From positions 64,001 to 128,000 of the forward strand of contig JBBRLQ010000012.1 of the NCBI GenBank assembly GCA_038231275.1: 64,000 nucleotides of DNA, read 5' to 3'. Below the pieces are notes generated by a model that worked only from the letters and a program-made list of their open reading frames with translations, had not been told where the DNA came from and searched no databases. The DNA is from Polyangiales bacterium (GTDB lineage: Bacteria; Myxococcota_A; Polyangia; Polyangiales; Polyangiaceae). Shown in pieces: positions 2-64,000 of the stretch; position 1 is the stretch's first letter, and each line of letters begins with the position of its first letter. A program made the translations under genes and the position numbers.

Positions 2-436
2 AGTAGCAGCGGCTCCAGCGGCGCTCTCGACGGGGGCAAGGCGTGCCCCGCCGACGCCGGCGGCAACTCGTGCTTCTGCGGCGATCTCGTTTGCAAGGAT
101 GGCCAGTGGACGTGCGGGCCGTGCTCCACCGACGGAGGCGCAGGGACGTGCAGCCCAGCGTGCGAGAGCGGCAAGGTGTGCGTGAAGGATCAGGTCGTCG
201 GCGGCGCGATCGTCTTCCCTGACGACGCCGGCACTTGCCCCGCCGGGCGTCACTTCGTCGCCGACCACTGCGAGCAAGATCCGACCTACGCGTGCGCCGC
301 GTACCCGTCGGGGTGCACCGGGCTCGCGCTCACTTGCACGTGCGCAGCGAGCATCTGTACGTCGCAGAGCAGCTGCTCGTTCACCTGCGAGAGCACCTCG
401 CCCGGGCAGGTGAACTGTCTCTGCCAGACGCCGTAA
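2..436 (+). CDS. Cys-rich secreted/lipoprotein-type protein, 5'-truncated by the window edge
   Basis: Frame is open from base 2 (SSSGSSGALDGGKACPADAGGNSCFCG...) into the 176..436 ORF; many Cys and DGG/DAG linkers; TAA at 434-436. Confidence 0.75.
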   Translation, partial: SSSGSSGALDGGKACPADAGGNSCFCGDLVCKDGQWTCGPCSTDGGAGTCSPACESGKVCVKDQVVGGAIVFPDDAGTCPAGRHFVADHCEQDPTYACAAYPSGCTGLALTCTCAASICTSQSSCSFTCESTSPGQVNCLCQTP

Positions 437-472
437 ACCACGGGGCCTGAGCATGCCCCGTGATTTACTTCT

Positions 473-586: not shown

Positions 587-2317
587 TCAGTCCGGGCGCG
601 TGCGAACGAGGCCGCGGCGGCTCGCGACCCAGAGATCGCGCCCGGCCGGCAGGACCGCCGTCACGTCCTTGCCGCTCGACGCGCGCGCGAGCGTTCGCCA
701 CGCGCCGCCGGCGAGCGGTCGCTCCAGGAGCCCGTCCATCGTCGCCGCGTACAGCTTGCCGTTCATGATCGCGAGGCCCGCGGGGTTCACGTAGCCGCCG
801 GCGAGGTGCTCGCCGGGCTCGAGCTTGCCGTGCTCGAGCGTGAGGCGTGTGACGCCGGAGTTGTAGGTGCCGACGAAGACGTTCGCGCCGTCGACGACGA
901 GCGACGTGATCCAGTCGTCCTTGAGGTGGCCGGTGATGATGGCGACGCGCTGCCAGCTTCCGCCGGGTTTTCCGGCGTAGAGGCCCGCGCTCGTGCCGAG
1001 GAGCAGCACGCCGTCCGGTCCTTCGGCGACCGCCCACACCGCGCGGACGGGGAGCCCTTGCTTCTCGTCCATGCGCGTGACCCCGCCGTTCTTCACGATC
1101 GCAGCGCCCTTCTCGGTGCCGACGAGGACGCCGCCGCCGGCGAGCGCGACCACCGCGTGAACCGCGCTCGAGGGGAGCACGCCGCCGCCGCCGTACGTGC
1201 GCGCGGTCTCTCCCTCGATCATCGTGAGGCCGCGGGCGGTCGCGACCCAGGCGCGGTGCCCTTCGATCGCGAGCCCATTCACGCGGCCGTCGACCTGCGG
1301 CACGTGCCGCCACTTGCCGCCTTCGAGGACGGCGACGCCACGCTCGTACGTGCCGACCCAGAGCGCGTCGCCGTCGCGGGCAACGGCGGTGAGATCGTTC
1401 TCCGGCAGACCGCCGGCCCCGAGGCGCGCGCCGCCCATGTACGCGCCGGAGCGGGTGCCCACGCATTTTCCGCTCGGATCGAGCGCCTGCACGAACTTCA
1501 CGCTGGCGTTGGCGGCCGGCGCATCGCCCTTCGCCGCGGCGCGGACGACACCTTTTCCAAACGTGCCGACGAGCATCGCGCCGTCCACGCTCGCGAGCGC
1601 GCGCGTGTCCGTGTCCCCTTCGAGGCGCGCCGGCGCGTTCTGCGCGATCGACACGACGCCCTCGAGCGCGCCGATCCACAGCCGCCCGTCGTGCGGCGCT
1701 AGCGCCCAGATCGTGCTCGGCGCGCGGCCGCCGCCCCACGCCTGCATCCCCGCCTTCCCGCCCTCGAGGCGAATGAGACCGCCGCCCGCCGTACCGCCGA
1801 CGAGCGCGCCGTCGTACGTGGCGAGCGACGTCACGCGCGAGCGCGCGTCGTACGTCGTCGCGTCGGACGGAAGCTTCACGAGGGCCGAGTCCGTCCAGCG
1901 GAGCACGCCGCCGCCCCACGTGCCGAGGTAGACCGCGCCGTCGTGCCGATGGATTGCGCGCACCGGCGACGACGGATACGCGACGTTGACGTTCACGTGG
2001 TCGCGATCGTAGAGCCGCGCCTTCGCGAGCCCCTTCTCGGTGCCGATCCACACGGTCTCCCCATCGAGGAGCAGCGAATGCACCCGCGTATCGGGGAGAC
2101 TGTCGAGCGCCGTGAGGACCCGTACGAGCTTGCCGTCGGCGCCGTACACCGCCAGCCCGCCGGCGGTCCCCGCGAGGACCACGCCATCCCTCGTCACCGC
2201 GCACGCGCGCACGTCGTCGATCGCGGTGTGGATCTCGAGCGGCGACTCGGCGCGCGCCGACCCTGATCCCAGCGCCGCCGCCGCAGCCACGGCGAGGGCA
2301 AGGACGGCGCGGCGCAT
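587..2317 (-). CDS. Secreted beta-propeller protein (two-component-regulator-propeller-like repeats)
   Basis: Signal peptide MRRAVLALAVAAAAALGSGSARA; repeated blades (DGETVWIGTEKGL, DGRLWIGALEGV, DALWVGTYERGV, DLWVASRRGL); TGATG overlap with upstream stop. Confidence 0.8.
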   Translation of the reverse strand: MRRAVLALAVAAAAALGSGSARAESPLEIHTAIDDVRACAVTRDGVVLAGTAGGLAVYGADGKLVRVLTALDSLPDTRVHSLLLDGETVWIGTEKGLAKARLYDRDHVNVNVAYPSSPVRAIHRHDGAVYLGTWGGGVLRWTDSALVKLPSDATTYDARSRVTSLATYDGALVGGTAGGGLIRLEGGKAGMQAWGGGRAPSTIWALAPHDGRLWIGALEGVVSIAQNAPARLEGDTDTRALASVDGAMLVGTFGKGVVRAAAKGDAPAANASVKFVQALDPSGKCVGTRSGAYMGGARLGAGGLPENDLTAVARDGDALWVGTYERGVAVLEGGKWRHVPQVDGRVNGLAIEGHRAWVATARGLTMIEGETARTYGGGGVLPSSAVHAVVALAGGGVLVGTEKGAAIVKNGGVTRMDEKQGLPVRAVWAVAEGPDGVLLLGTSAGLYAGKPGGSWQRVAIITGHLKDDWITSLVVDGANVFVGTYNSGVTRLTLEHGKLEPGEHLAGGYVNPAGLAIMNGKLYAATMDGLLERPLAGGAWRTLARASSGKDVTAVLPAGRDLWVASRRGLVRTRPD

Positions 2318-5109
2318 CACTTCCCCGCCGGCGCGACGGTGAGCGTGACGTCCGACTCGCCCTGGTTCATCGCCCGGTCGACCGCGACGACGTGCAGCAC
2401 CGCCGGCCCCGTGAGCGGCGCCTCAGGCTTCCAGAGGCCTCGGAACTCGCCGAGACGAATCGCCGTGAGCGGCATCGTCGTCCCATCGGGCAGGCGCACT
2501 TCGACGCGGTAGGCGTCGGTCAGGATCGTCGCGTACCGCTTCCGCAGATCCGCGACGTCGCCTTGCGTGCCGGGATTCGCCGCTTGAATCTCCGTCATCG
2601 TGATGATCTGCGACGCGCGGATCTCATACGTTCCCGGCTTCCCCGGCACGGCGTGCAGCGACACGTTCACGCTGGGCTTCTTCGTGTCGACGACGTACGG
2701 CAGCTCGAGCACCTCGAGCGCGCCGTCCTTGTGCGTGATGCGCACCTTCACCTTGTAGGTTCCGTCGGGCGTGTCCTTGTCGATGAGGAAGCGCACCGTC
2801 CACGCGTTGATCGAGCCCGCTTCGTAGGAGGCGACCTTCGACTCGCCGAACGGGAACACGACGACGACGCTCTGCGCGTCGGGCGGCGCGGGGATGTGGA
2901 TCTCCGGATCACCGGGTTGGAGGTGATCGGGTTCGAGGCGCGCGTTGCGACCGGACACGTTCTCGAGGTCGCCGCCGGTGACGCGCGCCTGGGCGGCCTC
3001 GGCCTCGCGCTTCGCGTTCTTACGGGCGATGTCGTACTTGGCATACGCCTCCTCGCTCTCGAGGACGAGGAACGACGTGTACTGACTCATGATCCCGAAC
3101 GCGAGCGACGCCTTCACGACGTCGTCCTTCTTCTCGGCGCCGTCCTGCTCGAGGTGCAGGATCTCGCTCCGCGCCCACCGCTGCGCGACGTGCGTGGCGT
3201 TCTCGGCCTTGGCGAGCGCGATCGGCTGTGAGATCTCCTTGCCGTCCACGGTCCCCTTCAACGTGATCTGCGCGGGAGCCTCCGTCCCTTTCGGCGTCTT
3301 GACGAGCGCGACGATCTCGTCGCCCTCCACGATCGTCTCCTCGGCGGTCGGAAAGACGACGTCGGCGTCGCGCGCGACGACGTGCGCGGCGGTGATCCGG
3401 CGCATGAGCGGACGTTGGCCGAGGCGCAATGCAAAGCGCTTCGCGTCGAGCGCGGTGCGGGGACGATCGAGCTGCCCACCCGTCGCGGCGACGAGATCGT
3501 GGACCCCGTCGAGATCGCCGGCCTTGCCGAGGACCATGGCATGGATCGACGCGCCGCCGAGGCTCTCCTTGGCAATTTTCGCGAGCGCCTCGGGGTTCGT
3601 CTCGCCCCACGTCGGGCTGCCGTCGCCGATGTAGAGGACCTCGACCTCCTTGCCGTCCTTGTCGCGCGAGACCTTGGCGAGGCGTCCGGCTTGTCGGAGC
3701 GCGGCGCCCACGTCGCTCGCGCCATCGGGCTCCAGGCGCTTCACGAACGCCACGGTCTTCTCGATCGCTTCGGGCGTCGGGGCGACGAGCTCGCCGGACT
3801 CCGGGCGCGCGACGACGTCGCTCGTCATCGCGACGTACCGATCCTCGGGGCCCATCTCGGCGAGCACCATCTTGAGGGCGTCGAGCTCCAGATCTCGCTC
3901 TTCGAGGGCGCTCCTGGAGGTGTCGACGACGACGACGAAGCGACGCGGCGGACGCGGGCCTTTCGGCTCGGGGACCTTCGACCAGTCGGGCGTCACGCGC
4001 ACTGCGGTGTAGGTTCCGTCGTCGCGCTTCTCGCGTACGACCGTCGGGACCCTGCCTCCCGTGAGCGGCACCACGACGTCGTGCGCCGCCGCCAAGTCCG
4101 CCTTCTCCACGACGGTCTTGCCCTCGAACTCCAGCTTGAACGCCGCCTTCTGCGACGCCGGATCGACGCTGCTCGTGGGGTACACGTACTGCCAACCGTC
4201 GAGCGTGCGCGAGAGCGGCGACACGAAGCGGAGCACCACGCGCTTCTTCTTCTTCGCCTCGATCGGGAAGACGCGCAGCTTGAAGACGTTGCCGTGCTCC
4301 CACTCGAGGAGCGCCGGGTCCATCATCTGATCGACGATCTCCTGGTAGATCTTCTGCGCCTTGTCGCGCTCGACGAGCTCGCCCTCCATGAGGTGCTCGC
4401 CAATCTCCATCGCGAGCCCGGTCAGCATCGCGCCCTCCGGCATCGGGAAGCGAAAGGTCCCCTCGAGCTGCTGATCGCTGTCGTTGCCGAACACGTGCTC
4501 GACCTCGGTCTCGGCGTAGTCGCCGGTCTGCTTCACCTTCACGGTCACGCGGTCGAGCGACACCGGCGCGATCTGGCCGGCGGGGCCGCGCGCTTCCATC
4601 TGGCCGATCCCGGCGGCCTCGCGCCCGGTCTCGAGGCGAAGGCTGAAATCGGCCTCCGCGACGTTTTTGCGCGTGTCGAGCTGCTCGGTCTTGCCGGAGC
4701 GCGGGAAGAAGAGGACGTCGCGCGCGCCGTGACGGAGCCGCGCTTCGCCTTGCGCCACGAGCACGCGGACCTCACCGGCGTCGTCCTGGCCGAGATCGAT
4801 CGACGTGTCGTCCTTGAGCCACAAGCGCCCCCGTCCGTCGCCGAGATCGAGCACCGCGCCGCCGCCCTTGGCGCGAAGCGCGACGACGTTGGCGACCCGC
4901 CGACCCTTCTCGAGCGCCGTCCACGACGCGTTGTCCTGGACGCGCGCCTCGACGACGCCATCGCTCGACACGAGCGCCACCGCGGCGTTCAGCGGCGCGC
5001 TCGGAGCCTTTGCGACGCCCTCGCCTCCTACGCCGGTCTTCGCGCGCGTGCCGCAGCCCGCTGCGGCGAGCACCATCCCCATCACGATGCACTTTGCGAG
5101 CGTTCTCAT
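2317..5109 (-). CDS. Lipoprotein with FecR-like N-region, VIT domain, vWA (MIDAS) domain and C-terminal Ig-like domain
   Basis: Lipobox LAAAGC after MRTLAK; VIT motif (TEVEHVFGN..LEGTFRFPMPEGA..DPALLEW..FKLRVFPI); MIDAS DTSRS and YIGDG; ATGA overlap with upstream gene. Confidence 0.85.
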   Translation of the reverse strand: MRTLAKCIVMGMVLAAAGCGTRAKTGVGGEGVAKAPSAPLNAAVALVSSDGVVEARVQDNASWTALEKGRRVANVVALRAKGGGAVLDLGDGRGRLWLKDDTSIDLGQDDAGEVRVLVAQGEARLRHGARDVLFFPRSGKTEQLDTRKNVAEADFSLRLETGREAAGIGQMEARGPAGQIAPVSLDRVTVKVKQTGDYAETEVEHVFGNDSDQQLEGTFRFPMPEGAMLTGLAMEIGEHLMEGELVERDKAQKIYQEIVDQMMDPALLEWEHGNVFKLRVFPIEAKKKKRVVLRFVSPLSRTLDGWQYVYPTSSVDPASQKAAFKLEFEGKTVVEKADLAAAHDVVVPLTGGRVPTVVREKRDDGTYTAVRVTPDWSKVPEPKGPRPPRRFVVVVDTSRSALEERDLELDALKMVLAEMGPEDRYVAMTSDVVARPESGELVAPTPEAIEKTVAFVKRLEPDGASDVGAALRQAGRLAKVSRDKDGKEVEVLYIGDGSPTWGETNPEALAKIAKESLGGASIHAMVLGKAGDLDGVHDLVAATGGQLDRPRTALDAKRFALRLGQRPLMRRITAAHVVARDADVVFPTAEETIVEGDEIVALVKTPKGTEAPAQITLKGTVDGKEISQPIALAKAENATHVAQRWARSEILHLEQDGAEKKDDVVKASLAFGIMSQYTSFLVLESEEAYAKYDIARKNAKREAEAAQARVTGGDLENVSGRNARLEPDHLQPGDPEIHIPAPPDAQSVVVVFPFGESKVASYEAGSINAWTVRFLIDKDTPDGTYKVKVRITHKDGALEVLELPYVVDTKKPSVNVSLHAVPGKPGTYEIRASQIITMTEIQAANPGTQGDVADLRKRYATILTDAYRVEVRLPDGTTMPLTAIRLGEFRGLWKPEAPLTGPAVLHVVAVDRAMNQGESDVTLTVAPAGK

Positions 5110-6233
5110 GGCTTGACCTCGATGCGCGCGACCGTCACGGTCTGCTTGTCTTGGAAGAGGCGGTAGGGCACGACGTGCCGCACTTCGTCGGCGGTCCCTT
5201 CGTGCAGGATGACGACGACCTCGCCGCGCGCTTCGTTGAAGGCGCTGCGGCGGCTCGAGAAGTAATTGACCTTGACGGTGTAGACGCCGCGCACGGCGTC
5301 CTTCGCGGTGTAGCTCTCGGGGCCGTAGCCGGTAGTGACGTCGTCGAAGAGCGCGTCGCCGCTCGCTCCCTGGCGGTGCGAGTAGAAAATCTTCTCGCCC
5401 GACGGGTTCTCGACCCACAGGTCGACGTCGGTGCGATCGGTGTCCCACGTGAGGTAGACCTTGATGTCGTTGACCGCGCCGCCGTGGATGCCGAGCAGGT
5501 CGATCTTCTTGCCGAGGGCGGTCGCCTCCGTCGCGTCGCTGCGCGTGAGGGCTTCGCGGCGCTTCTGCGAGTACGCCTGCGCGAGGCGCTGCTTCGCGGG
5601 GTAGCGCACGGCCTCGGGCGTCGCCTTGTTCTCGACGATCTCCTCGAAGCGCTTGAGCGACTCGTCGGCGTGGCCGAGGCGCTGCGCAACGTCGGCGAGC
5701 TCGAAGGCCATGCGGACGTCGTCCGATTTGATCGTCGTCGCGGCGAGGAGACGATCGTAGGCGCCTTGGAGATCCCCCGATTGCTTCAGGACCGTCGCGA
5801 GCGCGCGCTGCGACTCGAGGTCTTTCGGCAACAGCTCCACGATGGCCGAGTAGGTGCGGCGCGCCTGCTCTTTTTCGCCGAGCTCGGAATAGATGTCCCC
5901 GAGAAGGCGTACGACGACGAGGTTGTACGCGTCCTTCTCGCGCCACGCCTTCGCCTCGGTCAGCGCGCCCTGCAAATCGCCCATTTGCATGAGCGCGTGC
6001 ACCAGCTCGAAGCGCTTGATGCGGTCTTTCGGCGCGTCCTCGACGCCCTTGCGAAGCTCCACGATCTTCGCGGGCGTCGGCTTTTCACGCCCTTCGCGCG
6101 GCTCGTGATCGAGCGCCGTGAACTCCATCGCCCGAACGGGCGCGGCGAGCGCGTGGCCCGGCGAGAACAGCGCGGCGCCTAGGATCGCGACGCCGGAAAC
6201 GGTGCTTGCGAGATGCGATTTGCCCCACGCCAT
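5106..6233 (-). CDS. Secreted TPR-repeat protein with C-terminal DUF2135/YfaP-like domain
   Basis: Signal peptide; helical TPR-like repeats; DIKVYLTWDTDRTDVDLWVENPSGE..DDVTTGYGPESY motif; GGAGG RBS. Confidence 0.85.
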   Translation of the reverse strand: MAWGKSHLASTVSGVAILGAALFSPGHALAAPVRAMEFTALDHEPREGREKPTPAKIVELRKGVEDAPKDRIKRFELVHALMQMGDLQGALTEAKAWREKDAYNLVVVRLLGDIYSELGEKEQARRTYSAIVELLPKDLESQRALATVLKQSGDLQGAYDRLLAATTIKSDDVRMAFELADVAQRLGHADESLKRFEEIVENKATPEAVRYPAKQRLAQAYSQKRREALTRSDATEATALGKKIDLLGIHGGAVNDIKVYLTWDTDRTDVDLWVENPSGEKIFYSHRQGASGDALFDDVTTGYGPESYTAKDAVRGVYTVKVNYFSSRRSAFNEARGEVVVILHEGTADEVRHVVPYRLFQDKQTVTVARIEVKP

Positions 6234-6259
6234 GTGACGGCCTCCCGGCACGTGGTCAT

Positions 6260-6275
6260 CGCAAGGGCCCTGCCA
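6260..6275 (-). promoter_or_regulatory. Sigma-54 (-24/-12) promoter of the TPR-DUF2135/VIT/propeller operon
   Basis: TGGCAGGGCCCTTGCG on the minus strand (GG-N10-GC); upstream palindrome CGTGTC-N6-GACACG at 6317-6334. Confidence 0.7.
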
Positions 6276-6513
6276 AGTGTGACCGTGGGCAAACGGCCGC
6301 GCCGCGCGGCGAGGGGCGTGTCCGGCGCGACACGGAGCGTGGGAGCGGCGACGCGCCGGCGCAGGTAGACCGAGCAGAGCCCGAGGTTAGCCGTCGGCCA
6401 GTCGGACTTGGACTCGCGCAGTGCGCAGCCGCATGCTGCGAGACGCTCCCGCTACACGGTGGTGCGGCCGTCTCCCGACGGCGAGACGGACCTCGGCATG
6501 TGACGTCGACGTT

Positions 6514-6936
6514 TCAGTCGCCGCCGCCGTCTTCGCCGCCACCGCCGTCGCTGCCGCCGTCACCGCCACCACCGCCACCACCACCGTCACCGCCACCACC
6601 GCCGTCGCTGCCGTAACCCTGCGCCTGTCCGCTGCCGGCGTCCGTCTGCCCGTCGCCGCCACCAGAACTGCCGATGTCGTCGATGCCGGCGTCCTTCGCG
6701 AGGGAGCTGTCGCTCTGATCGGGCAGAGGCTGGTCCGAACCCGTGTCGTGGGGCGCGATCGATTCCTCGTACGACTCCCCGCGACGATCTTCAACATCGT
6801 CCGAGCGCCGCCAATCCTCGAACCTGGGGGGACCCGGCGGAGATGACGGCCCCGGCGTCAACTCGGGGGGGAGCGTAAGACCTCCTCCGTGCACCTGATC
6901 CAAGTCCTCGACCTCGAGCTCTCGATATTTTCTCAT
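6514..6936 (-). CDS. Small protein with double-glycine-type leader and Pro/Asp/Gly-rich body
   Basis: MRKYRELEVEDLDQVHGG matches the ELxxxxLxxVxGG leader pattern; acidic low-complexity body ending in DGGGG repeats; has its own sigma-54 promoter. Confidence 0.75.
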   Translation of the reverse strand: MRKYRELEVEDLDQVHGGGLTLPPELTPGPSSPPGPPRFEDWRRSDDVEDRRGESYEESIAPHDTGSDQPLPDQSDSSLAKDAGIDDIGSSGGGDGQTDAGSGQAQGYGSDGGGGGDGGGGGGGGDGGSDGGGGEDGGGD

Positions 6937-6949
6937 GACAACGCTGTTG

Positions 6950-6965
6950 AGCAGGGGTCATGCCA
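6950..6965 (-). promoter_or_regulatory. Sigma-54 promoter of the double-Gly peptide gene
   Basis: TGGCATGACCCCTGCT (GG-N10-GC) ending 13 nt before ATG 6936. Confidence 0.7.
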
Positions 6966-10023: not shown

Positions 10024-10039
10024 AGCAGCGAGCATGCCA
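10024..10039 (-). promoter_or_regulatory. Sigma-54 promoter of the barrel/CxxCH operon
   Basis: TGGCATGCTCGCTGCT (GG-N10-GC); perfect inverted repeat TGTGCAGC-TC-GCTGCACA at 10081-10098 upstream. Confidence 0.7.
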
Positions 10040-59548: not shown

Positions 59549-60229
59549 ATGCGGTCCTTCGTTCGCCTCGCGCTCCCGTCGCTCCTCCTTCTCGCTCCCC
59601 TCGTCGCGTGCTCAGCGCCTGCCGACTCGAACGCCGAGAGCGGCGCAGCGGCGGTGACCGACTGCGCGAACGTCCGCTCCACGCCGACGCGTTCCGAGCA
59701 GAAGAACACCGCGGGCGATGTCACGAGCACGACCCTCACCGTCGAGGCCGCCGGCTGCATCGCGAGCGACGATCCCGCAAAGCTCGTCGACAAGCTCGTC
59801 GCCCTCGTCGAGGACGATCAGAAGCTGTCGAGCGTCTCGAACGCCACCGGCAAGATCTTCTCGAAGTACTCCCCTCACTCCCCCACCGGCGAGATCGGCG
59901 GACCCACCGGCCTCGTTCGCACCGTGGACGTGACGTTCAACGCGAAGAAGAACCCCTCCACGACGATCAAGGTGTCGCTCAAGAAGAGCTCCACCGGCGA
60001 GGTGTCGTTCGGCCTCACGAACACGAAGGGCGTCGGCGTCCTGGTCTGGACGGCGATCGAGCCCGGCGGCCTCGATGTTCGCCTCACGGTCAAGCCCAGC
60101 GCGGGCGGCGTCACGATCTCCGGAACCACGAAGGTCGTCGTCCAGCCCGGGTACGAAGACAGCGTGAAGGGGATGGACGAGCTCCCGTCGCTCGTCATCC
60201 ACTGGCTCCAGGATCAGGTCAAGGCCTAG
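59549..60229 (+). CDS. Lipoprotein, hypothetical (beta-rich)
   Basis: Lipobox PLVAC; AESGAAAVT linker. Confidence 0.72.
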   Translation: MRSFVRLALPSLLLLAPLVACSAPADSNAESGAAAVTDCANVRSTPTRSEQKNTAGDVTSTTLTVEAAGCIASDDPAKLVDKLVALVEDDQKLSSVSNATGKIFSKYSPHSPTGEIGGPTGLVRTVDVTFNAKKNPSTTIKVSLKKSSTGEVSFGLTNTKGVGVLVWTAIEPGGLDVRLTVKPSAGGVTISGTTKVVVQPGYEDSVKGMDELPSLVIHWLQDQVKA

Positions 60230-61959
60230 GCGGATCGCTTCTTCTTCGTCCAGGCGAGCAGATCCTCGGCGGTGCCTGCGTTGACGACGCGCTCCGGCGG
60301 GATCCACGCGCGCTCGGCATTCAGCGCGGCGTAGCGCACGCGTTCCAGCTCGCTCGCGTGGTGGGCGTCGCTCGTGAGGACGAACGTGAGATCGCGGGGG
60401 CGCGCGCGACGCAGGGCCTCGACCGACATGTCGAGGCGCGGGAGGGCGCCGTTCACTTCGAGCGCGGTGCCCGTGGCCTCGGCCGCGTCGAAGATCGCGT
60501 CGAGATCGAGATCGATCGCGGGGCGCCCGCCGATCATGCGTGCCGAGAGGTGGCCGATCATCCGTACCGTCGGATCGGCCATCGCGGTCGTGACGCGCTT
60601 GGTCTGCGCGGCGCGATCCTGCTCGAAATGGTCGTGCACCGACGCGAGGCAGAAGCCGAAGCCTTTGCGGAACTCGAGATCGTAGTCGAGCTCGCCGTTG
60701 GGCCCGATGTTGAGCTCGACGCCGTGGAGAAGCGTGAGCGTGTCGCCGAGCTGCTTCTGCATCGCGGCGATCTTCGCGCGCTGATCGAGGAGCGCCTCGC
60801 GGCCGACGCCCGAGAGCGTTCCCTCGGCGTGGTCGGTGATCGCGAGGACGCGGTAGCCGAGGGCCTTCGCGGTGGCAACGACGTCCTCGAGCTTCGACCG
60901 GCCATCGCCGGAGACGTCGGTGTGGACGTGGAAATCGCCGATCACCTTGCCCATCGCGCGCGGGAGGGTCCCCTTCTCGGCCGCCTCAATCTCGCCGGCG
61001 TCCTCGCGCAGCACCGGCGGGATGAAGCGGAGGCCGAGGGCCTTGTAGATCTGCTCCTCGGTCTCGCGCGCGACGATCTTGCCGCCTTCGATCTCGGAGA
61101 GGGCATACTCGTTGAGCGTCCAGCCGCGGGCGAGCGCGCGTGTGCGCAGCTTGATGTTGTGTCCCTTGGAGCCCGTGAAGTACAGGCGCGCGGCGCCGAG
61201 CTGCTCCTCCTGGACGACGCGGAGATCGACCTGCGTGCCGCGGTGCGTGACGATGCTGGTCTTGCCGGCGCCGCGCACGAGGACGCGCTCGACGACGCTC
61301 ATCCCGACGAGCGCGTCCATCACCGGCTCCGGCGTCTTCGACGCGACGAGGATGTCGACGTCGCCGATCGTCTCCGCGAACCGACGCAGCGAGCCGCAAT
61401 AGGACGCGTGCGTGACGCCGGGCACCTCTTGCAGCCGCGCGAGAATGCGATTGGCGAGCGGGAGGGCGACGGACACCGGCGTGCGACCGACCGAGCCTTG
61501 CTCGTCGAGCTTCTTCAGCGCGGCGGCGAGCTTCTCTTCGGATTTTTGCCCGAAGCCCTTGAGCGCCTGGACCTTGTGATCGGCGAGCGCCTTCCTCAGA
61601 TCGTCGAGGGACGCGACACCGAGCTCGGCGCGGAGCTTTCCGACCGCCTTGGGCCCCAGGCCCTGGATTTTGAGGAGCGCGACGATGGCGGGCGGGTGCT
61701 TTTGCCGTAGCCCCTCGAGCTTCGCGACCTTGCCGGTGTCGAGGAGCTCGCGGATCTTGTCGGCAGTGCTCTTGCCGATGCCCTCGATTTTCTGCAAATC
61801 CTTCGCGGTGAGCTTGCCCAGATCGGTCGCCTGCGACGCGATCGCCTGCGCGGCGCTCTCGTAGGCGCGCACGCGGAACGACTGCGGGTCCGCCTCGTCG
61901 AGCATCGTGAGCTCAGCCAGGTCGCGAAGCATGTCGAGAACGTCTTGCTTCGAATCCAT
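60226..61959 (-). CDS. polX: DNA polymerase X with C-terminal PHP domain
   Basis: HhH motifs (IEGIGK, IQGLGPK), GSLRR..GDVD, VDLR, YFTGSK; PHP motifs HVHT, TDH, SDAH. Confidence 0.95.
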   Translation of the reverse strand: MDSKQDVLDMLRDLAELTMLDEADPQSFRVRAYESAAQAIASQATDLGKLTAKDLQKIEGIGKSTADKIRELLDTGKVAKLEGLRQKHPPAIVALLKIQGLGPKAVGKLRAELGVASLDDLRKALADHKVQALKGFGQKSEEKLAAALKKLDEQGSVGRTPVSVALPLANRILARLQEVPGVTHASYCGSLRRFAETIGDVDILVASKTPEPVMDALVGMSVVERVLVRGAGKTSIVTHRGTQVDLRVVQEEQLGAARLYFTGSKGHNIKLRTRALARGWTLNEYALSEIEGGKIVARETEEQIYKALGLRFIPPVLREDAGEIEAAEKGTLPRAMGKVIGDFHVHTDVSGDGRSKLEDVVATAKALGYRVLAITDHAEGTLSGVGREALLDQRAKIAAMQKQLGDTLTLLHGVELNIGPNGELDYDLEFRKGFGFCLASVHDHFEQDRAAQTKRVTTAMADPTVRMIGHLSARMIGGRPAIDLDLDAIFDAAEATGTALEVNGALPRLDMSVEALRRARPRDLTFVLTSDAHHASELERVRYAALNAERAWIPPERVVNAGTAEDLLAWTKKKRSA

Positions 61960-61984
61960 GACCCGTGGCTATACCCTTCGGGAC
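61960..61984. promoter_or_regulatory. 25-bp bidirectional promoter between polX and the primase-polymerase gene
   Basis: TACCCT (+, 61972-61977) 7 nt before GTG 61985; TATAGC (-, 61968-61973) 8 nt before ATG 61959. Confidence 0.55.
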
Positions 61985-63319
61985 GTGGGCAAGGAAGAGG
62001 CTCCGGCAGTGCTCGAGCTCGGCGGTCGCGAGGTGCGTGTGACGCACCCCAGCAAGCCGTATTTCACGAAGGACACGAAGCTCTCGAAGCTCGACGTGGT
62101 CCAGTACTACCTCGCGGTCGCAGACGGGGCGAAGCGCGGGATCGTCGATCGGCCCGTCGTCCTCAAGCGCTTCGTCGACGGCGCGGACGGCGAGGCGTTC
62201 TACCAGAAGCGCGCGCCGGAGAAGCGCCCGCCGTGGCTTCGGACGGTGACGCTGTCCTTCCCGTCGGGGCGCACGGCAGAAGAAGTGGTGGTCGACGACG
62301 ACGCGGGCCTCGCGTGGATCGTGAATCTCGGGTGCATCGAGCTGCACCCTCATCCGGTGCGCGCCGGCGATCTCGAACACCCCGATGAGCTGCGCGTCGA
62401 TCTCGACCCGGGGCCCGGCGTTCCGTGGAGCGACGTTCGCAAGGTGGCGCTGGAAGTGAACGCGCTGCTGGGCGAGCTCGGCCTCGTTGGATGGCCCAAG
62501 ACGAGCGGATCGCGTGGGGTTCACGTCCTCGTTCGCATCGCGCCGCGGTGGACGTTCACCGAGGTGCGGCGCGCGGCGTTGGCGCTGTCGCGCGAGATCG
62601 AGCGGCGCGCCCCCGCGATCGCGACGAGCAAGTGGTGGAAGGAGGAGCGACGCGGCGTCTTCCTCGACTACAACCAGAACGCCAAGGATCGCACGACGTG
62701 CTCCGCGTACTCGATCCGGCCGCTCCCCGACGCGCGCGTGTCGACGCCGCTGACGTGGAGCGAAGTGCCGGAGTGCGAGCCGGCGGACTTCACGGTGCTC
62801 ACGGTGCCGAAGCGCTTCGCGGCGCTCGGCGATCCGCACGCGGGTATCGACGGGAGCGCGGGATCGCTCGAGGCGCTGCTGGAGCTCGCGGCGCGAGACG
62901 AGGCGTCGGGGCTCGGGGACGCGCCGTGGCCTCCGCACTTCGCGAAGGGCGACGGAGAGGGGCCGCGCGTGGCGCCCTCGCGCGCGAAGAAGCCGGCGGG
63001 GACGGCGAAGCGTGCCCCGCGCACGAAGATGCCGCTTTTGACCGTCGCCAACTCACCGAGCAAGGAAGCGGCGCTCGCGGGGCTGGAGCGCTGGAAAACG
63101 CGGCACCCCGAGGCGGCGGCGCTGCTCGCCGTGGACGACGTGCTCGTCGACTCGATGCGCGGCCGCTCGTCGACGTGGACGCGCATCCGGGTCAATCTCA
63201 AGAACGTGCCCGAAGCGTCGCGCCCGCCTCAAGAGACGCCGGACCCCGACGACGATCCGACCCGCGGCTGGCGCGACGCGATGCGCGCACATGGCAAGGA
63301 CGAGCCAAAGGAGCCTTAG
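61985..63319 (+). CDS. LigD-Pol-type primase-polymerase (Prim-PolC-like) with extra C-terminal domain
   Basis: FYQKR, RVDLDP, KTSGSRGVH, WWKEER, FLDYNQN; no ligase or phosphoesterase domain. Confidence 0.9.
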   Translation: MGKEEAPAVLELGGREVRVTHPSKPYFTKDTKLSKLDVVQYYLAVADGAKRGIVDRPVVLKRFVDGADGEAFYQKRAPEKRPPWLRTVTLSFPSGRTAEEVVVDDDAGLAWIVNLGCIELHPHPVRAGDLEHPDELRVDLDPGPGVPWSDVRKVALEVNALLGELGLVGWPKTSGSRGVHVLVRIAPRWTFTEVRRAALALSREIERRAPAIATSKWWKEERRGVFLDYNQNAKDRTTCSAYSIRPLPDARVSTPLTWSEVPECEPADFTVLTVPKRFAALGDPHAGIDGSAGSLEALLELAARDEASGLGDAPWPPHFAKGDGEGPRVAPSRAKKPAGTAKRAPRTKMPLLTVANSPSKEAALAGLERWKTRHPEAAALLAVDDVLVDSMRGRSSTWTRIRVNLKNVPEASRPPQETPDPDDDPTRGWRDAMRAHGKDEPKEP

Positions 63320-63341
63320 TCGAGGCGCCGGCGCGAGCCTC

Positions 63342-64000
63342 TCAGTGGCCTGCGAAGATCGCCGACAGCTCCTCCGGCGGGACGACCTCGAGCTGGGCGT
63401 AGTCACACTCGCGCGGCGGCTTGTCGGTGCGCCAGCGACGAAACTGGGCGGTGTGGCGAAAGCGTGTATTTTGCATGTGATCGTATCCGACCTCGGCGAC
63501 GAGCTCGGGGCGGAGCGGCTCCCACGAGAGATCTTTGCCCTGGCTCCAGCGGCTCTTGCCGCCAGGCATGCGCTTGCCTTCGGGCGCTGCGGCGGGCGCG
63601 TCGGCGGACGCTTCCGCAGCTTCTGCCATCGCGCCAGCCCAGTCGCGCCACGGGTGGTCATCGAGCGCGCGTTCACGGTACGGAGCCAGGTGCTCGACCA
63701 GGGCGCGGCGCTTCTCCGCGGTGAAGCTCGCCGAGACGCCGACGTGGTGCAGCGTTCCCGCGGCGTCGAAGAGGCCGAGGAGGAGCGAGCCGACCGCGGT
63801 GCCGGTGCCGCCTTTGTGCCAGCGAAAGCCGGCGACGACGCAGTCGCACTCGCGCTCGTGCTTCACCTTGAGCATGACGCGCTTGTTCGCCTCGTACGCG
63901 CCCGCGCGCGGCTTGGCCATCACGCCGTCGAGGCCGGCGCCTTCGAAGCGCTTGAACCAGTCGGCGGCGACGGCGCGATCGGTCGTCGCGGGAGTGACGT
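63342..64000 (-). CDS. ligC: ATP-dependent DNA ligase, LigC type (5' part outside the window)
   Basis: Frame open to the edge: WFKRFEGAGLDGVMAK, MLKVKH, GSLLLGL, PELVAEV, RFRH, WRTDK. Confidence 0.9.
   Translation of the reverse strand, partial: VTPATTDRAVAADWFKRFEGAGLDGVMAKPRAGAYEANKRVMLKVKHERECDCVVAGFRWHKGGTGTAVGSLLLGLFDAAGTLHHVGVSASFTAEKRRALVEHLAPYRERALDDHPWRDWAGAMAEAAEASADAPAAAPEGKRMPGGKSRWSQGKDLSWEPLRPELVAEVGYDHMQNTRFRHTAQFRRWRTDKPPRECDYAQLEVVPPEELSAIFAGH

Follow-up and report, generated by a model that had tools for sequence, protein, structure and literature searches.

The window analysed here, a 64,000-nt stretch of a Polyangiales bacterium (GCA_038231275.1, contig JBBRLQ010000012.1, positions 64,001-128,000, forward strand), contains three consecutive genes on the minus strand, termed A, B and C (Table 1). 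The genes are closely coupled, the A/B junction being an ATGA overlap (5109-5106) and the B/C junction a GTGATG overlap (2320-2315), with an in-frame GTG for gene C at 2320. The third-position GC of the three open reading frames is strong (0.87-0.93). Export signals were read from the sequences of A (...GHALA/AP) and C (...SARA/ES), and B carries a lipobox. An earlier note on this DNA had described three exported proteins, coupled by overlapping stop and start codons, behind a GG-N10-GC promoter and an upstream palindrome. The open reading frames, the export signals and both overlaps were confirmed, and promoter and palindrome were both located, the outer edge of the palindrome (6334) being the end coordinate given in that note. 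Five terminator-like hairpins were found in the scan against 3.3 expected, and the hairpin beyond gene C is weak when taken alone.

Table 1 Features of the three-gene locus, with positions in the window.
Feature	Position	Strand	Remarks
Palindrome CGTGTC-N6-GACACG	6317..6334	minus	putative enhancer-binding-protein site; kept in L001
Sigma-54-type -24/-12 element TGGCAGGGCCCTTGCG	6260..6275	minus	GG-N10-GC; 10/12 consensus positions
Shine-Dalgarno GGGAGG	6241..6246	minus	7 nt ahead of ATG 6233; identical in L001
Gene A	6233..5106	minus	exported TPR + DUF2135 protein, 375 aa (P0001)
TPR solenoid of A, helices in residues 54-246	5496..6074	minus	Pfam TPR families; model; fold matches
DUF2135/YfaP-type beta-sandwich of A, residues 255-373	5115..5471	minus	Pfam, YfaP homology, model
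Gene B	5109..2317	minus	ITIH-like lipoprotein, VIT + vWA, 930 aa (P0002)
Lipobox AAGC (AAG/C) of B, Cys19	5053..5064	minus	Cys19 conserved in ≥90% of 92 homologues
All-beta N-terminal domain of B, residues 44-145	4675..4980	minus	model; FecR position in paralogues
VIT domain of B, residues 186-294	4228..4554	minus	E 7.8e-27; one of the best-conserved regions of B
vWA domain of B, residues 392-546	3472..3936	minus	VWA_3 1.4e-07
MIDAS DTSRS of B	3910-3924	minus	in vWA domain
Disordered linker part of B, residues 707-721	2947..2991	minus	pLDDT <50 (about 30)
Invariant QPGDPE of B, residues 731-736	2902..2919	minus	start of C-terminal beta region
Two Ig-like domains of B, residues 736-930	2320..2904	minus	Big_13 1.9e-05; model; fold matches
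Gene C	2317..587	minus	576 aa (P0003); exported; 14 Reg_prop blades making up two seven-bladed propellers
GC-rich hairpin, terminator-like	439..462	no strand	in the gap separating gene C from the convergent upstream gene

The GTGTC of the palindrome starts 58 nt ahead of the TGGCA of the sigma-54-type element. Within the window alone neither element is above chance: the sigma-54 pattern with up to two mismatches has 7 matches in the whole window against 6.83 expected, and the palindrome pattern has 1 against 0.8. Promoter and palindrome are credible because they are conserved in relatives, and not on account of the counts in the window. At least 10 of the 12 sigma-54 consensus positions are matched in 32/61 upstream regions, where 0.016 matches are expected per 320 nt, and GTGTC lies at fixed distances in 35/49 of the relatives' upstream regions against a background of 11%; the proposed promoter and its upstream site are upheld by this conservation. 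Of the 54 GTGTC occurrences, which cluster near 53 and 76 nt, 17 have a distance of exactly 53 nt; the conserved CGTGTC boxes are found at 53-58 nt and 67-80 nt.

The GTGTC count left out 12 of the 61 upstream regions. Eleven of these, including all six Nannocystaceae loci, have no sigma-54 site of at least 9/12 near the start, while in the twelfth (L015) the upstream sequence is too short. No recognisable sigma-54 site was found in the six Nannocystaceae loci and, since the upstream regions of 11 loci are free of such a site, regulation is not uniform. A search of the 43 other open reading frames in the window revealed no gene for an enhancer-binding protein. A second, CG-rich palindrome (6297-6314) was rejected as a conserved element, as it is missing in the closest relative, L001.

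Domains of the three proteins

Protein A matches TPR_19 (5.6e-10) and DUF2135 (PF09906; 24.0 bits against a cut-off of 22), and was modelled with a pLDDT of 88.3. The C-terminal domain shares 38% identity over 104 aa with E. coli YfaP (BLASTP, E 8e-19), as expected from the DUF2135/YfaP likeness noted earlier, and an Atlas search gave a score of 0.94 to a 'YfaP family' cluster. In a fold search with the whole of A only TPR proteins were matched, the TPR part dominating over DUF2135. Residues W263, D264, D269, D271, D298, T300 and G302-E306 are invariant. The DUF2135 domain is found in 3545 library proteins at E ≤ 0.001, and we know of no activity of this domain; the literature search on DUF2135 gave no match, and no description of YfaP function was found among the literature matches listed. 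In E. coli, yfaP sits in the cluster yfaA-yfaT-yfaS-yfaQ-yfaP, which encodes in YfaS what we take to be an alpha-2-macroglobulin-like protein. The families of the yfaS-type macroglobulin, yfaQ, yfaT and yfaA are absent from the 43 other open reading frames of the window and from the conserved neighbours. All NCBIfam matches of the module proteins are far under their cut-offs, and an identity with BatC was rejected on a score of 30.6 bits against a cut-off of 175. An aerotolerance-type operon of the Bat/MoxR-vWA kind was likewise rejected, with neither a MoxR AAA+ ATPase nor DUF58 in the window or the conserved neighbours.

In protein B (model pLDDT 88.6) the VIT domain is followed by a vWA domain, and both are present in 25/25 family members checked. 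D396, S398, R399, S400 and D496 are invariant in 92 sequences and the MIDAS, which had been called intact from the DTSRS motif, is complete. DxSxS is present in every locus that reaches the site, and D[TS]SRS in all but eight, which were checked separately. The N-terminal domain, by contrast with its earlier label 'FecR-like', has no match to FecR (PF04773) in Pfam for residues 1-170 at E ≤ 10, and FecR is found in 0/25 family members at E ≤ 0.01; it is the paralogues alone that carry FecR at the matching position (5/6). The hhalign alignment of B with P0210 starts at residue 163, and that with the paralogue L071 reaches residue 51 with low column confidence. The domain check by HMM suggested in the earlier note thus recovered TPR, DUF2135, VIT, vWA and Reg_prop, and left FecR unconfirmed.

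The profile of the B family matches the inter-alpha-inhibitor heavy chains ITIH4 (1.2e-27) and ITIH1 (4.1e-22), and the match continues past the vWA domain as far as the strand TSFLVLES. The best fold match of the B model in Foldseek is ITIH1 (PDB 6FPY), with an E value of 7.7e-28 over 593 columns and a TM score of 0.54 on the target. Both comparisons give B the heavy-chain core fold, in which the vWA domain sits atop a hybrid domain that in turn overlies a large beta-sandwich. The likeness in architecture to the heavy chains, previously drawn from the VIT and vWA domains, is borne out at the level of profile and fold, and B is predicted to be a lipid-anchored homologue of the heavy-chain core.

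Behind this core is a linker (residues 685-732) whose length varies from 42 to 52 aa and in which a variable basic segment precedes the disordered part. Few parts of B are as well conserved as the C-terminal half of this linker and the QPGDPE motif. QPGDPE is present in 67/67 orthologues that reach the site and in 0/6 fused paralogues, and in the model of B the C-terminal beta region has its first long strand directly after the motif. The fold of the C-terminal part matches Bap-like and SiiE-like domains, and the Atlas score for residues 700-930 (0.82) serves as a lead only. Among shorter proteins there are 39 matches to the C-terminal part of B, mostly same-family fragments on short contigs. 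Searches for the ITIH C-terminal domain gave no Pfam ITI_HC_C match in B at E ≤ 10, and the PDB sequence search with residues 700-930 revealed no likeness to it.

Protein C has 14 blade motifs in its sequence (Reg_prop 2.3e-20) and is closest in sequence to propellers that Bacteroides hybrid kinases carry in the periplasm (3V9F, 3VA6/3OTT and 4A2L). Pfam gave no match in C to Y_Y_Y, transmitter or T9SS C-terminal domains. The longer relatives of C are Reg_prop + Y_Y_Y sensors of more than 1000 aa; of the 120 listed, 119 are not VIT/vWA proteins and nearly all have a sensor-type output domain (histidine kinase, GGDEF etc.). One subgroup of C has a single propeller only.

Conservation as a unit and fusions

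A check of gene neighbourhoods in relatives, as had been suggested, covered 70 orthologous Polyangia loci from 70 species-level genomes, and in these the three genes follow one another as A-B-C on the same strand wherever the contig reaches. Gene A is present in 67/70 loci and gene C in 64/70, every miss being a contig end. A 4-nt stop/start overlap is possible at 53/67 A/B junctions and 55/64 B/C junctions. No further conserved neighbour gene was found around the orthologous loci, and apparent large neighbour clusters were rejected as antisense shadow ORFs. The named orthologous loci are all from Polyangia, with none from the Myxococcus group.

Proteins in which A and B are joined are found among the relatives. 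A VIT domain is at the start of 22/30 long proteins that end in a DUF2135-type domain, and the single chain P0210 matches both B (residues 164-720, 2e-61) and A (residues 129-368, 7e-32). The myxobacterial paralogues (L071-L076) are also single-chain VIT-vWA-TPR proteins. Based on these alignments, A and B are a split form of single-chain VIT-vWA-TPR-DUF2135 proteins and, because A corresponds to the detached tail of the single chain, it most likely docks on B. B and C are joined in P0327 (1441 aa), which has 43% identity to B over residues 38-820 and 35% identity over 94% of C, the propeller being fused behind Ig1 of B, and in L042, where B and C lie within one open reading frame. C is found only with the QPGDPE-bearing form of B. 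Gene order and fusions together support the view that A, B and C form one unit.

No description of the three-gene module was found in the literature searched, and the search joining inter-alpha-trypsin with Myxococc gave unrelated papers only. The module is conserved in one myxobacterial class and is so far undescribed, as the earlier note had supposed.

Possible role of the module

We propose, with a probability of about 0.45, that the proteins of the module form a complex in the cell envelope that is under sigma-54 control and serves for metal-dependent capture or tethering. Gene structure, domains, fusions, the ITIH-like fold and the conservation of genes and cis-elements are direct results, and complex formation, compartment, ligands and tethering are an inference, as are the stoichiometric complex and the roles in protease defence, matrix binding or cell contact put forward in the earlier note. 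An unlinked enhancer-binding protein at the CGTGTC boxes would switch on the operon, and the three exported proteins from this sigma-54-dependent transcription would act as one extracytoplasmic unit. The unit would be anchored in the outer membrane and would capture an acidic ligand through the Mg or Mn ion of the MIDAS of B. The MIDAS of the heavy chain HC1 is described as serving self-association and C3 binding (PMC7170535), and a further precedent is CglB, described as a vWA lipoprotein adhesin in the outer membrane of M. xanthus (PMC9946355). C may be a propeller of the ligand- or glycan-binding type that acts at the C-terminal end of B and holds a glycan; PorZ, which has the same type of fold, is described as binding glycan, and PorZ and BT4663 as glycan-linked (PMC8545088). 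By these contacts the unit would fasten the membrane to a layer of protein or polysaccharide, whether matrix, wall or partner cell. A location at the surface would need an export route that is absent from the locus, because A and C carry Sec signals only. Plain adhesion, however, leaves unexplained both the invariant QPGDPE and the link of DUF2135 with the macroglobulin-like protein in E. coli, and an operon of this kind has to be reconciled with the lack of an enhancer-binding-protein gene in the window and with regulation that differs between loci.

Alternatively, the module might be an envelope protease trap of the bait type, analogous to ITIH4, although we consider this unlikely. B would be cut in its linker and the head would bind the protease via the MIDAS, the bound head blocking large substrates, with A as a helper like YfaP beside YfaS. 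ITIH4 is described as being cut in a protease-susceptible segment that lies beyond its heavy-chain core, which leads to a vWA- and cation-dependent inhibitory complex (PMC7793589), and B is disordered at the same place, after its variable basic stretch. The homology of the C-terminal domain of A to YfaP, whose gene is in the yfaS operon, is also consistent with such a trap. The locus and its conserved neighbours, however, include no macroglobulin gene, and a typical bait would be variable, unlike QPGDPE and the well-conserved C-terminal half of the linker. A trap also leaves the propeller and the Ig-like domains unexplained.

A further reading is a self-cleaving covalent tether resembling the precursors of ITIH1-3. 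The bond between Asp734 and Pro735 would break autocatalytically, the Ig-like tail would leave like a pro-domain, and the lipid-anchored head, now ending in Asp, would be esterified through this residue to a glycan presented by C. We regard this as rather improbable, even though the motif is universal in the orthologues, missing from the six paralogues and placed just before the first long C-terminal strand, much as GDPH is described between the first two strands of the beta-sandwich in ITIH3/5/6 (PMC10880436). The occurrence of C only with this form of B, and its position behind Ig1 in P0327, would fit a propeller that presents a glycan, and PorZ is described as passing glycan to an enzyme with two actions, removal of a C-terminal Ig-like domain and attachment of the glycan (PMC8545088). 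In B, however, the motif is GDPE instead of GDPH, the region that follows has no sequence likeness to the ITIH C-terminal domain and has the fold of bacterial Ig-like adhesin domains, and a conserved turn at the start of a domain could be structural alone.

B, which as a lipoprotein of the outer-membrane type combines a vWA MIDAS with Ig-like domains, would suit a role as a cell-surface adhesin for gliding or cell contact, like CglB and CglD of Myxococcus xanthus. CglB is described as a vWA outer-membrane lipoprotein adhesin (PMC9946355) and CglD as integrin-like (bioRxiv 10.1101/2023.10.19.562135). This role is nonetheless very unlikely: no Glt or other export genes are present in the locus or the conserved neighbours, the descriptions of CglB and CglD mention nothing comparable to VIT, TPR-DUF2135 or the propeller, and the orthologues come from outside the Myxococcus group. 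It is highly improbable that the module is periplasmic and senses glycan through C and the domain of B at the FecR position, signalling to the regulator of the operon, since the sensor-type outputs of nearly all listed longer relatives of C and the FecR of the paralogues, which point that way, are set against the absence of a transmembrane or cytoplasmic output domain in A, B and C, of Y_Y_Y in C, of a detectable FecR in B and of a linked regulator among the window ORFs and conserved neighbours.

Two further candidates were rejected. In Limnobacter, a VIT-vWA protein induced by radiation is described as a cytoplasmic protein, and its architecture differs from that of the module (bioRxiv 10.64898/2026.05.23.727404). 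For known anti-phage defence, none of A, B and C matched a PADLOC family at E ≤ 0.001.

Bacterial VIT-vWA proteins are common in genomes and, to our knowledge, almost without functional description. The module provides a defined case, with 70 species-level genomes, clear partners and a readable regulatory region, in which D734-P735 is one sharply testable residue pair. It also joins two orphan observations, namely DUF2135 beside macroglobulin-like genes in E. coli and beside ITIH-like proteins here, the latter also seen in many single-chain relatives. B appears to offer a bacterial parallel to the way in which the whole animal heavy-chain precursor is laid out, with a core, a linker, Asp-Pro and a tail of removable size. 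If cleavage and transfer occur, this would be heavy-chain-type protein-glycan transfer in bacteria and a sortase-free covalent link from an outer-membrane lipoprotein to a polysaccharide layer, that is, a new Gram-negative way to fasten the outer membrane to glycan. If B acts as a bait, the module would represent a second family of bacterial protease traps.

Comparison with known systems

CglB and CglD resemble B as myxobacterial lipoproteins with a vWA MIDAS domain but, according to their descriptions, are set apart by having Glt partners and no named VIT. YfaP is homologous to the C-terminal beta domain of A, the TPR part of A being outside that alignment. C is like the Bacteroides hybrid two-component sensors and PorZ in having, by sequence, two seven-bladed Reg_prop propellers; unlike them it stands alone, without Y_Y_Y, a membrane and kinase part or a T9SS C-terminal domain.

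The heavy chains (ITIH1, 6FPY; ITIH4, 9C4F) and B both contain VIT and vWA with a MIDAS, and both continue beyond the core with a linker and then a beta-rich C-terminal region of ~200 aa, the first residues of which are Gly-Asp-Pro. B differs in being a bacterial lipoprotein with an additional N-terminal beta domain, and the identity in the fold alignment is only 15%. The C-terminal part of B resembles bacterial Ig-like domains, unlike the ITIH C-terminal domain, Glu replaces the His of the ITIH motif, and the module is without the bikunin or TSG-6 context of ITIH.

Related too are the uncharacterised single-chain VIT-(vWA)-TPR-DUF2135 proteins, in which B aligns to the N-terminal two thirds and A to the tail, and which share the motifs DPALLEWE and TSFLVLESEE with the split A and B. 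In the window, by contrast, the chain is split into two genes, with the tail gene before the head gene, and the B side has gained QPGDPE, two Ig-like domains and a following propeller gene, all three of which set it apart from the paralogues.

Gene organisation and conservation of the module

Genes A (TPR and DUF2135 protein), B (VIT and vWA lipoprotein) and C (Reg_prop propeller protein) have a third-position G+C of 0.87-0.93, the value expected of real genes in this window (G+C ~70%). The sequence ATGA (5109-5106) is common to the stop codon of A and the start codon of B, while GTGATG (2320-2315) contains the stop codon of B. Export signals were read at all three N-termini, with signal-peptidase-I-type ends in A and C and a lipobox (AAG↓C) in B; at least 90% of 92 homologues retain its Cys. 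This agrees with the earlier note, which described overlap-coupled genes for three exported proteins. The adjoining genes (2OG oxygenase, aminotransferase and Ser/Thr kinase) are unrelated to the module. The convergent neighbour (2-436, plus strand) carries at its end a Cys-rich tail of 144 aa that matches nothing in Pfam, and a DNA-end-joining-type cluster is found at 60229-63998 (PolX-like polymerase with PHP domain, LigD primase-polymerase and the C-terminal region of an ATP-dependent ligase).

Coordinates of the module, its upstream elements and the modelled parts of protein B
Feature	Position	Strand	Detail
Palindrome CGTGTC-N6-GACACG	6334-6317	minus	upstream of A
Sigma-54-type element TGGCAGGGCCCTTGCG	6275-6260	minus	upstream of A
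Shine-Dalgarno GGGAGG	6246-6241	minus	upstream of A
Gene A	6233..5106	minus	375 aa
Gene B	5109..2317	minus	930 aa
Gene C	2317..587	minus	576 aa; in-frame GTG at 2320
Hairpin	439-462		between C and convergent gene
B, all-beta N-terminal domain	residues 44-145		model
B, heavy-chain-like core	residues 170-682		model; two helices follow
B, disordered stretch	residues 707-721		model, pLDDT ~30
B, two beta domains	residues 736-930		model; resemble Bap and SiiE Ig-like domains

One genome per species was scanned, giving 510 stretches that encode relatives, the best 80 of which represent 76 loci: 70 orthologous (36-87% identity) and six distant paralogues (26-29%). Within this best 80 of 510, tblastn placed A upstream of B in 67/70 orthologous loci and C downstream in 64/70, always on the same strand; in every one of the three A misses and six C misses the contig ends at or inside B. 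The conservation of gene neighbourhood that the earlier note had proposed as a check is thus found wherever contigs reach. Stop and start codons could overlap by 4 nt at 53 of the 67 A/B junctions and 55 of the 64 B/C junctions. Clustering of all flanking ORFs revealed no further gene common to more than a subgroup of loci, the largest extra clusters being antisense shadows. The named records (Kofleriaceae/Haliangiales, Polyangiaceae, Labilithrix, Byssovorax and the Nannocystaceae Enhygromyxa salina and Plesiocystis pacifica) are all Polyangia; five records carry labels without a myxobacterial or deltaproteobacterial group, two of them naming other taxa (Vicinamibacteria and Enterobacteriaceae). 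Conservation is strongest in A, with a mean column identity of 48%; B reaches 39% and C 35%. Because of this synteny and the fusions described below, a chance neighbourhood of A, B and C is excluded.

The upstream region

In the window alone both DNA motifs occur at chance level (sigma-54 pattern with ≤2 mismatches, 7 seen and 6.83 expected; palindrome with ≤1 mismatch, 1 seen and 0.8 expected), and their support comes from comparison with relatives. A sigma-54 site that retains both GG and GC and agrees with the consensus at 10 or more of 12 positions precedes A in 32 of the 61 loci with enough upstream sequence (background 0.016 per 320 nt). Upstream DNA was aligned for the 49 loci in which a site scoring 9/12 or better lies close to the start; the 12 left out comprise 11 without such a site, including all six Nannocystaceae, and L015, whose upstream sequence is too short. 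Within 140 nt, GTGTC is found in 35/49 loci, and two or more times in 19/49, compared with 10.8% and 1.0% of 12,608 control windows. The spacing of GTGTC is fixed. It lies exactly 53 nt before TGGCA in 17 of 54 occurrences, the remainder clustering at 54-58 nt and 67-80 nt, and forms a proximal box, CGTGTC-N7-CCACG (26 loci), and a distal box, CGTGTC-N7-GACG (27 loci). L001, the closest relative, has diverged over the rest of this DNA but is identical at the promoter, at the Shine-Dalgarno with start codon and at the CGTGTC palindrome; a CG-rich palindrome (6297-6314) is lost there and was rejected as a conserved element. As judged from sequence, the layout is what a sigma-54 promoter with tandem activator sites would be expected to show. 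No activator gene was found in the locus, nor did a scan of the 43 other ORFs of the window reveal one. The GG-N10-GC promoter and upstream palindrome first reported are present and conserved, but not above chance in the window. Together, these comparisons show A, B and C to be one conserved operon, of sigma-54 type and predicted to be co-translated.

The six Nannocystaceae loci (L030, L031, L034, L044, L055 and L064, from Enhygromyxa, Plesiocystis and relatives) keep A-B-C. No sigma-54 element is recognisable before A in these loci (best 5-9/12, at odd distances), so control of the module seems to differ in this order.

A second sigma-54-like site, TGGCATGACCCCTGCT (6965-6950), lies 14 nt ahead of the start of a 140-aa ORF (6514-6965, minus strand), which opens with MRKYRELEVEDLDQVHGGG, similar to a double-glycine leader, and closes with runs of Gly and Asp. 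With a third-position G+C of only 0.73 and a match in 0/76 loci, this ORF may not be a gene. A third match, TGGCATGCTCGCTGCT, is at 10024-10039 (minus strand).

Domains and fused forms of A, B and C

Pfam searches identified TPR families and DUF2135 in A (24.0 bits, cut-off 22), VIT (7.8e-27), VWA_3 (1.4e-07) and a weak Big_13 in B, and Reg_prop (2.3e-20) in C. The domains named earlier were thus recovered by HMM, but not FecR: the label 'FecR-like' for B reflected position only (FecR is found there in paralogues), and B gave no HMM match to it.

The beta domain of A is dense in invariant Asp, Trp and Gly residues. In the model, residues 36-40 (6114-6128) form a confidently placed short strand (pLDDT ~92) before the TPR helices; this strand may pair with the C-terminal beta-sandwich. 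The C-terminal 136 residues matched 3545 library proteins (E≤0.001), many ~1000 aa long with a DUF2135-type domain at the very end; of 30 such long proteins examined, 22 have VIT as their first domain, and in several DUF2135 is directly preceded by TPR. P0210 (1379 aa; FecR, VIT, VWA_3, DUF2135) matches both B 164-720 (29% identity, 2e-61) and A 129-368 (30%, 7e-32). Each of the six myxobacterial paralogues is one chain of ~1200-1340 aa with VIT, vWA and TPR (FecR in 5/6), and the tail of one, L072, aligns to A residues 55-339. On these alignments, A and B are one polypeptide in other proteins. Rotaria sordida (bdelloid rotifer) proteins in the P0188 cluster carry VIT, a DUF2135-type domain and a ZZ zinc finger, placing the head-plus-tail architecture in a eukaryote record also. 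P0200 (1364 aa), which has DUF2135 at its end and squalene-hopene-cyclase-like repeats in place of VIT, is another large exported-looking partner of DUF2135.

The blade motif is repeated 14 times in C, which indicates two seven-bladed propellers. Among proteins >1008 aa its best relative is P0327 (1441 aa; VIT, VWA_3, Reg_prop), with 43% identity to B 38-820 and 35% over 94% of C. None of the other 119 relatives among the matches listed (>1008 aa) has VIT/vWA; nearly all are sensor kinases, GGDEF proteins and similar, with Reg_prop and mostly Y_Y_Y domains. In L042, a single 1101-aa ORF joins B to a one-propeller C lacking its signal peptide. C and the C-terminal extension of B co-occur, both being absent from the six paralogues. 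The three exported products are thus shown by alignment to be fused pairwise in relatives. In one subgroup (L027, L039, L042, L043, L045, L046 and partly L040) C is only ~310-360 aa, with one propeller that matches blades 8-14 and is always paired with a B without the N-terminal domain; B is alignable only from ~residue 150 in 24/70 orthologous loci.

The B model (AlphaFold, 92 sequences) has a mean pLDDT of 88.6 and a pTM of 0.71. Besides VIT, the most conserved stretches of B are TSFLVLESEEAY and VTGGDLE...QPGDPEIxIPAP, the latter running into the first Ig-like domain. All 92 sequences share P732, G733, D734, P735 and E736, and QPGDPE (residues 731-736) is present in 67/67 orthologous loci reaching the site and 0/6 paralogues.

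Proposed function and comparison with known systems

By domain assignment, B is an integrin-like head, with the MIDAS metal site in its vWA domain, on a lipid anchor, and C is a sensor-type double propeller. From these features, the operon and the pairwise fusions we infer a three-part unit of the cell envelope. Such a unit would serve for capture or tethering, the ligand being held through the MIDAS metal of B and a glycan by C (probability about 45%).

An unlikely alternative, drawn by analogy with the inter-alpha-inhibitor heavy chain (ITIH) ITIH4, is that a protease would cut an exposed linker of B and then be held by the MIDAS head. PMC7793589 describes such a cut-and-hold mode for the inhibition of MASP-1/2 and kallikrein by ITIH4, and the recurring link of DUF2135 to large plasma-protein-like capture proteins fits it; the invariant QPGDPE motif and the propeller C are, however, left unexplained. 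Quite improbable is an ITIH1-3-like course, in which B would cleave itself at GD↓PE and its head be transferred to a glycan presented by C. The closest parallel to it in bacteria is PorZ, a double propeller which, according to PMC8545088, passes anionic LPS to the enzyme that cleaves away an Ig-like C-terminal domain and adds the glycan. A CglB-like surface adhesin is less likely again, and a sensing role very unlikely.

The components of the module belong to known domain families. In line with the earlier note, which knew of no functional description, the papers found gave no account of A, B and C in combination, of their split or fused forms, of the GDPE signature or of the regulatory architecture. 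The likeness of A to YfaP noted before holds, the C-terminal domain of this E. coli protein being homologous to the A beta domain (38% identity, E 8e-19) and yfaP the last gene of yfaA-yfaT-yfaS-yfaQ-yfaP. The ITIH architecture proposed for VIT plus vWA is likewise borne out: a profile of 25 B-family members matches ITIH4 (1.2e-27) and ITIH1 (4.1e-22) across VIT, vWA and the post-vWA region to the strand TSFLVLES, and the best PDB match of the B model is ITIH1 (6FPY; E 7.7e-28, 593 columns, 15% identity, TM 0.54 on target). According to PMC7170535 and PMC10880436, respectively, the ITIH precursor tail is removed on ester-linking of the chain to chondroitin sulfate, and in ITIH3/5/6 GDPH lies between the first two strands of a beta-sandwich, whereas B has GDPE (Glu replacing His). 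No sequence likeness between the B and ITIH tails is detectable. In its order of core, linker and tail and its invariant GDPE site, the modelled B appears to copy the whole ITIH precursor layout, including Asp-Pro at the boundary. B, a vWA protein of bacteria that resembles ITIH and integrins and has two dedicated partners, stands outside the animal ITIH family.
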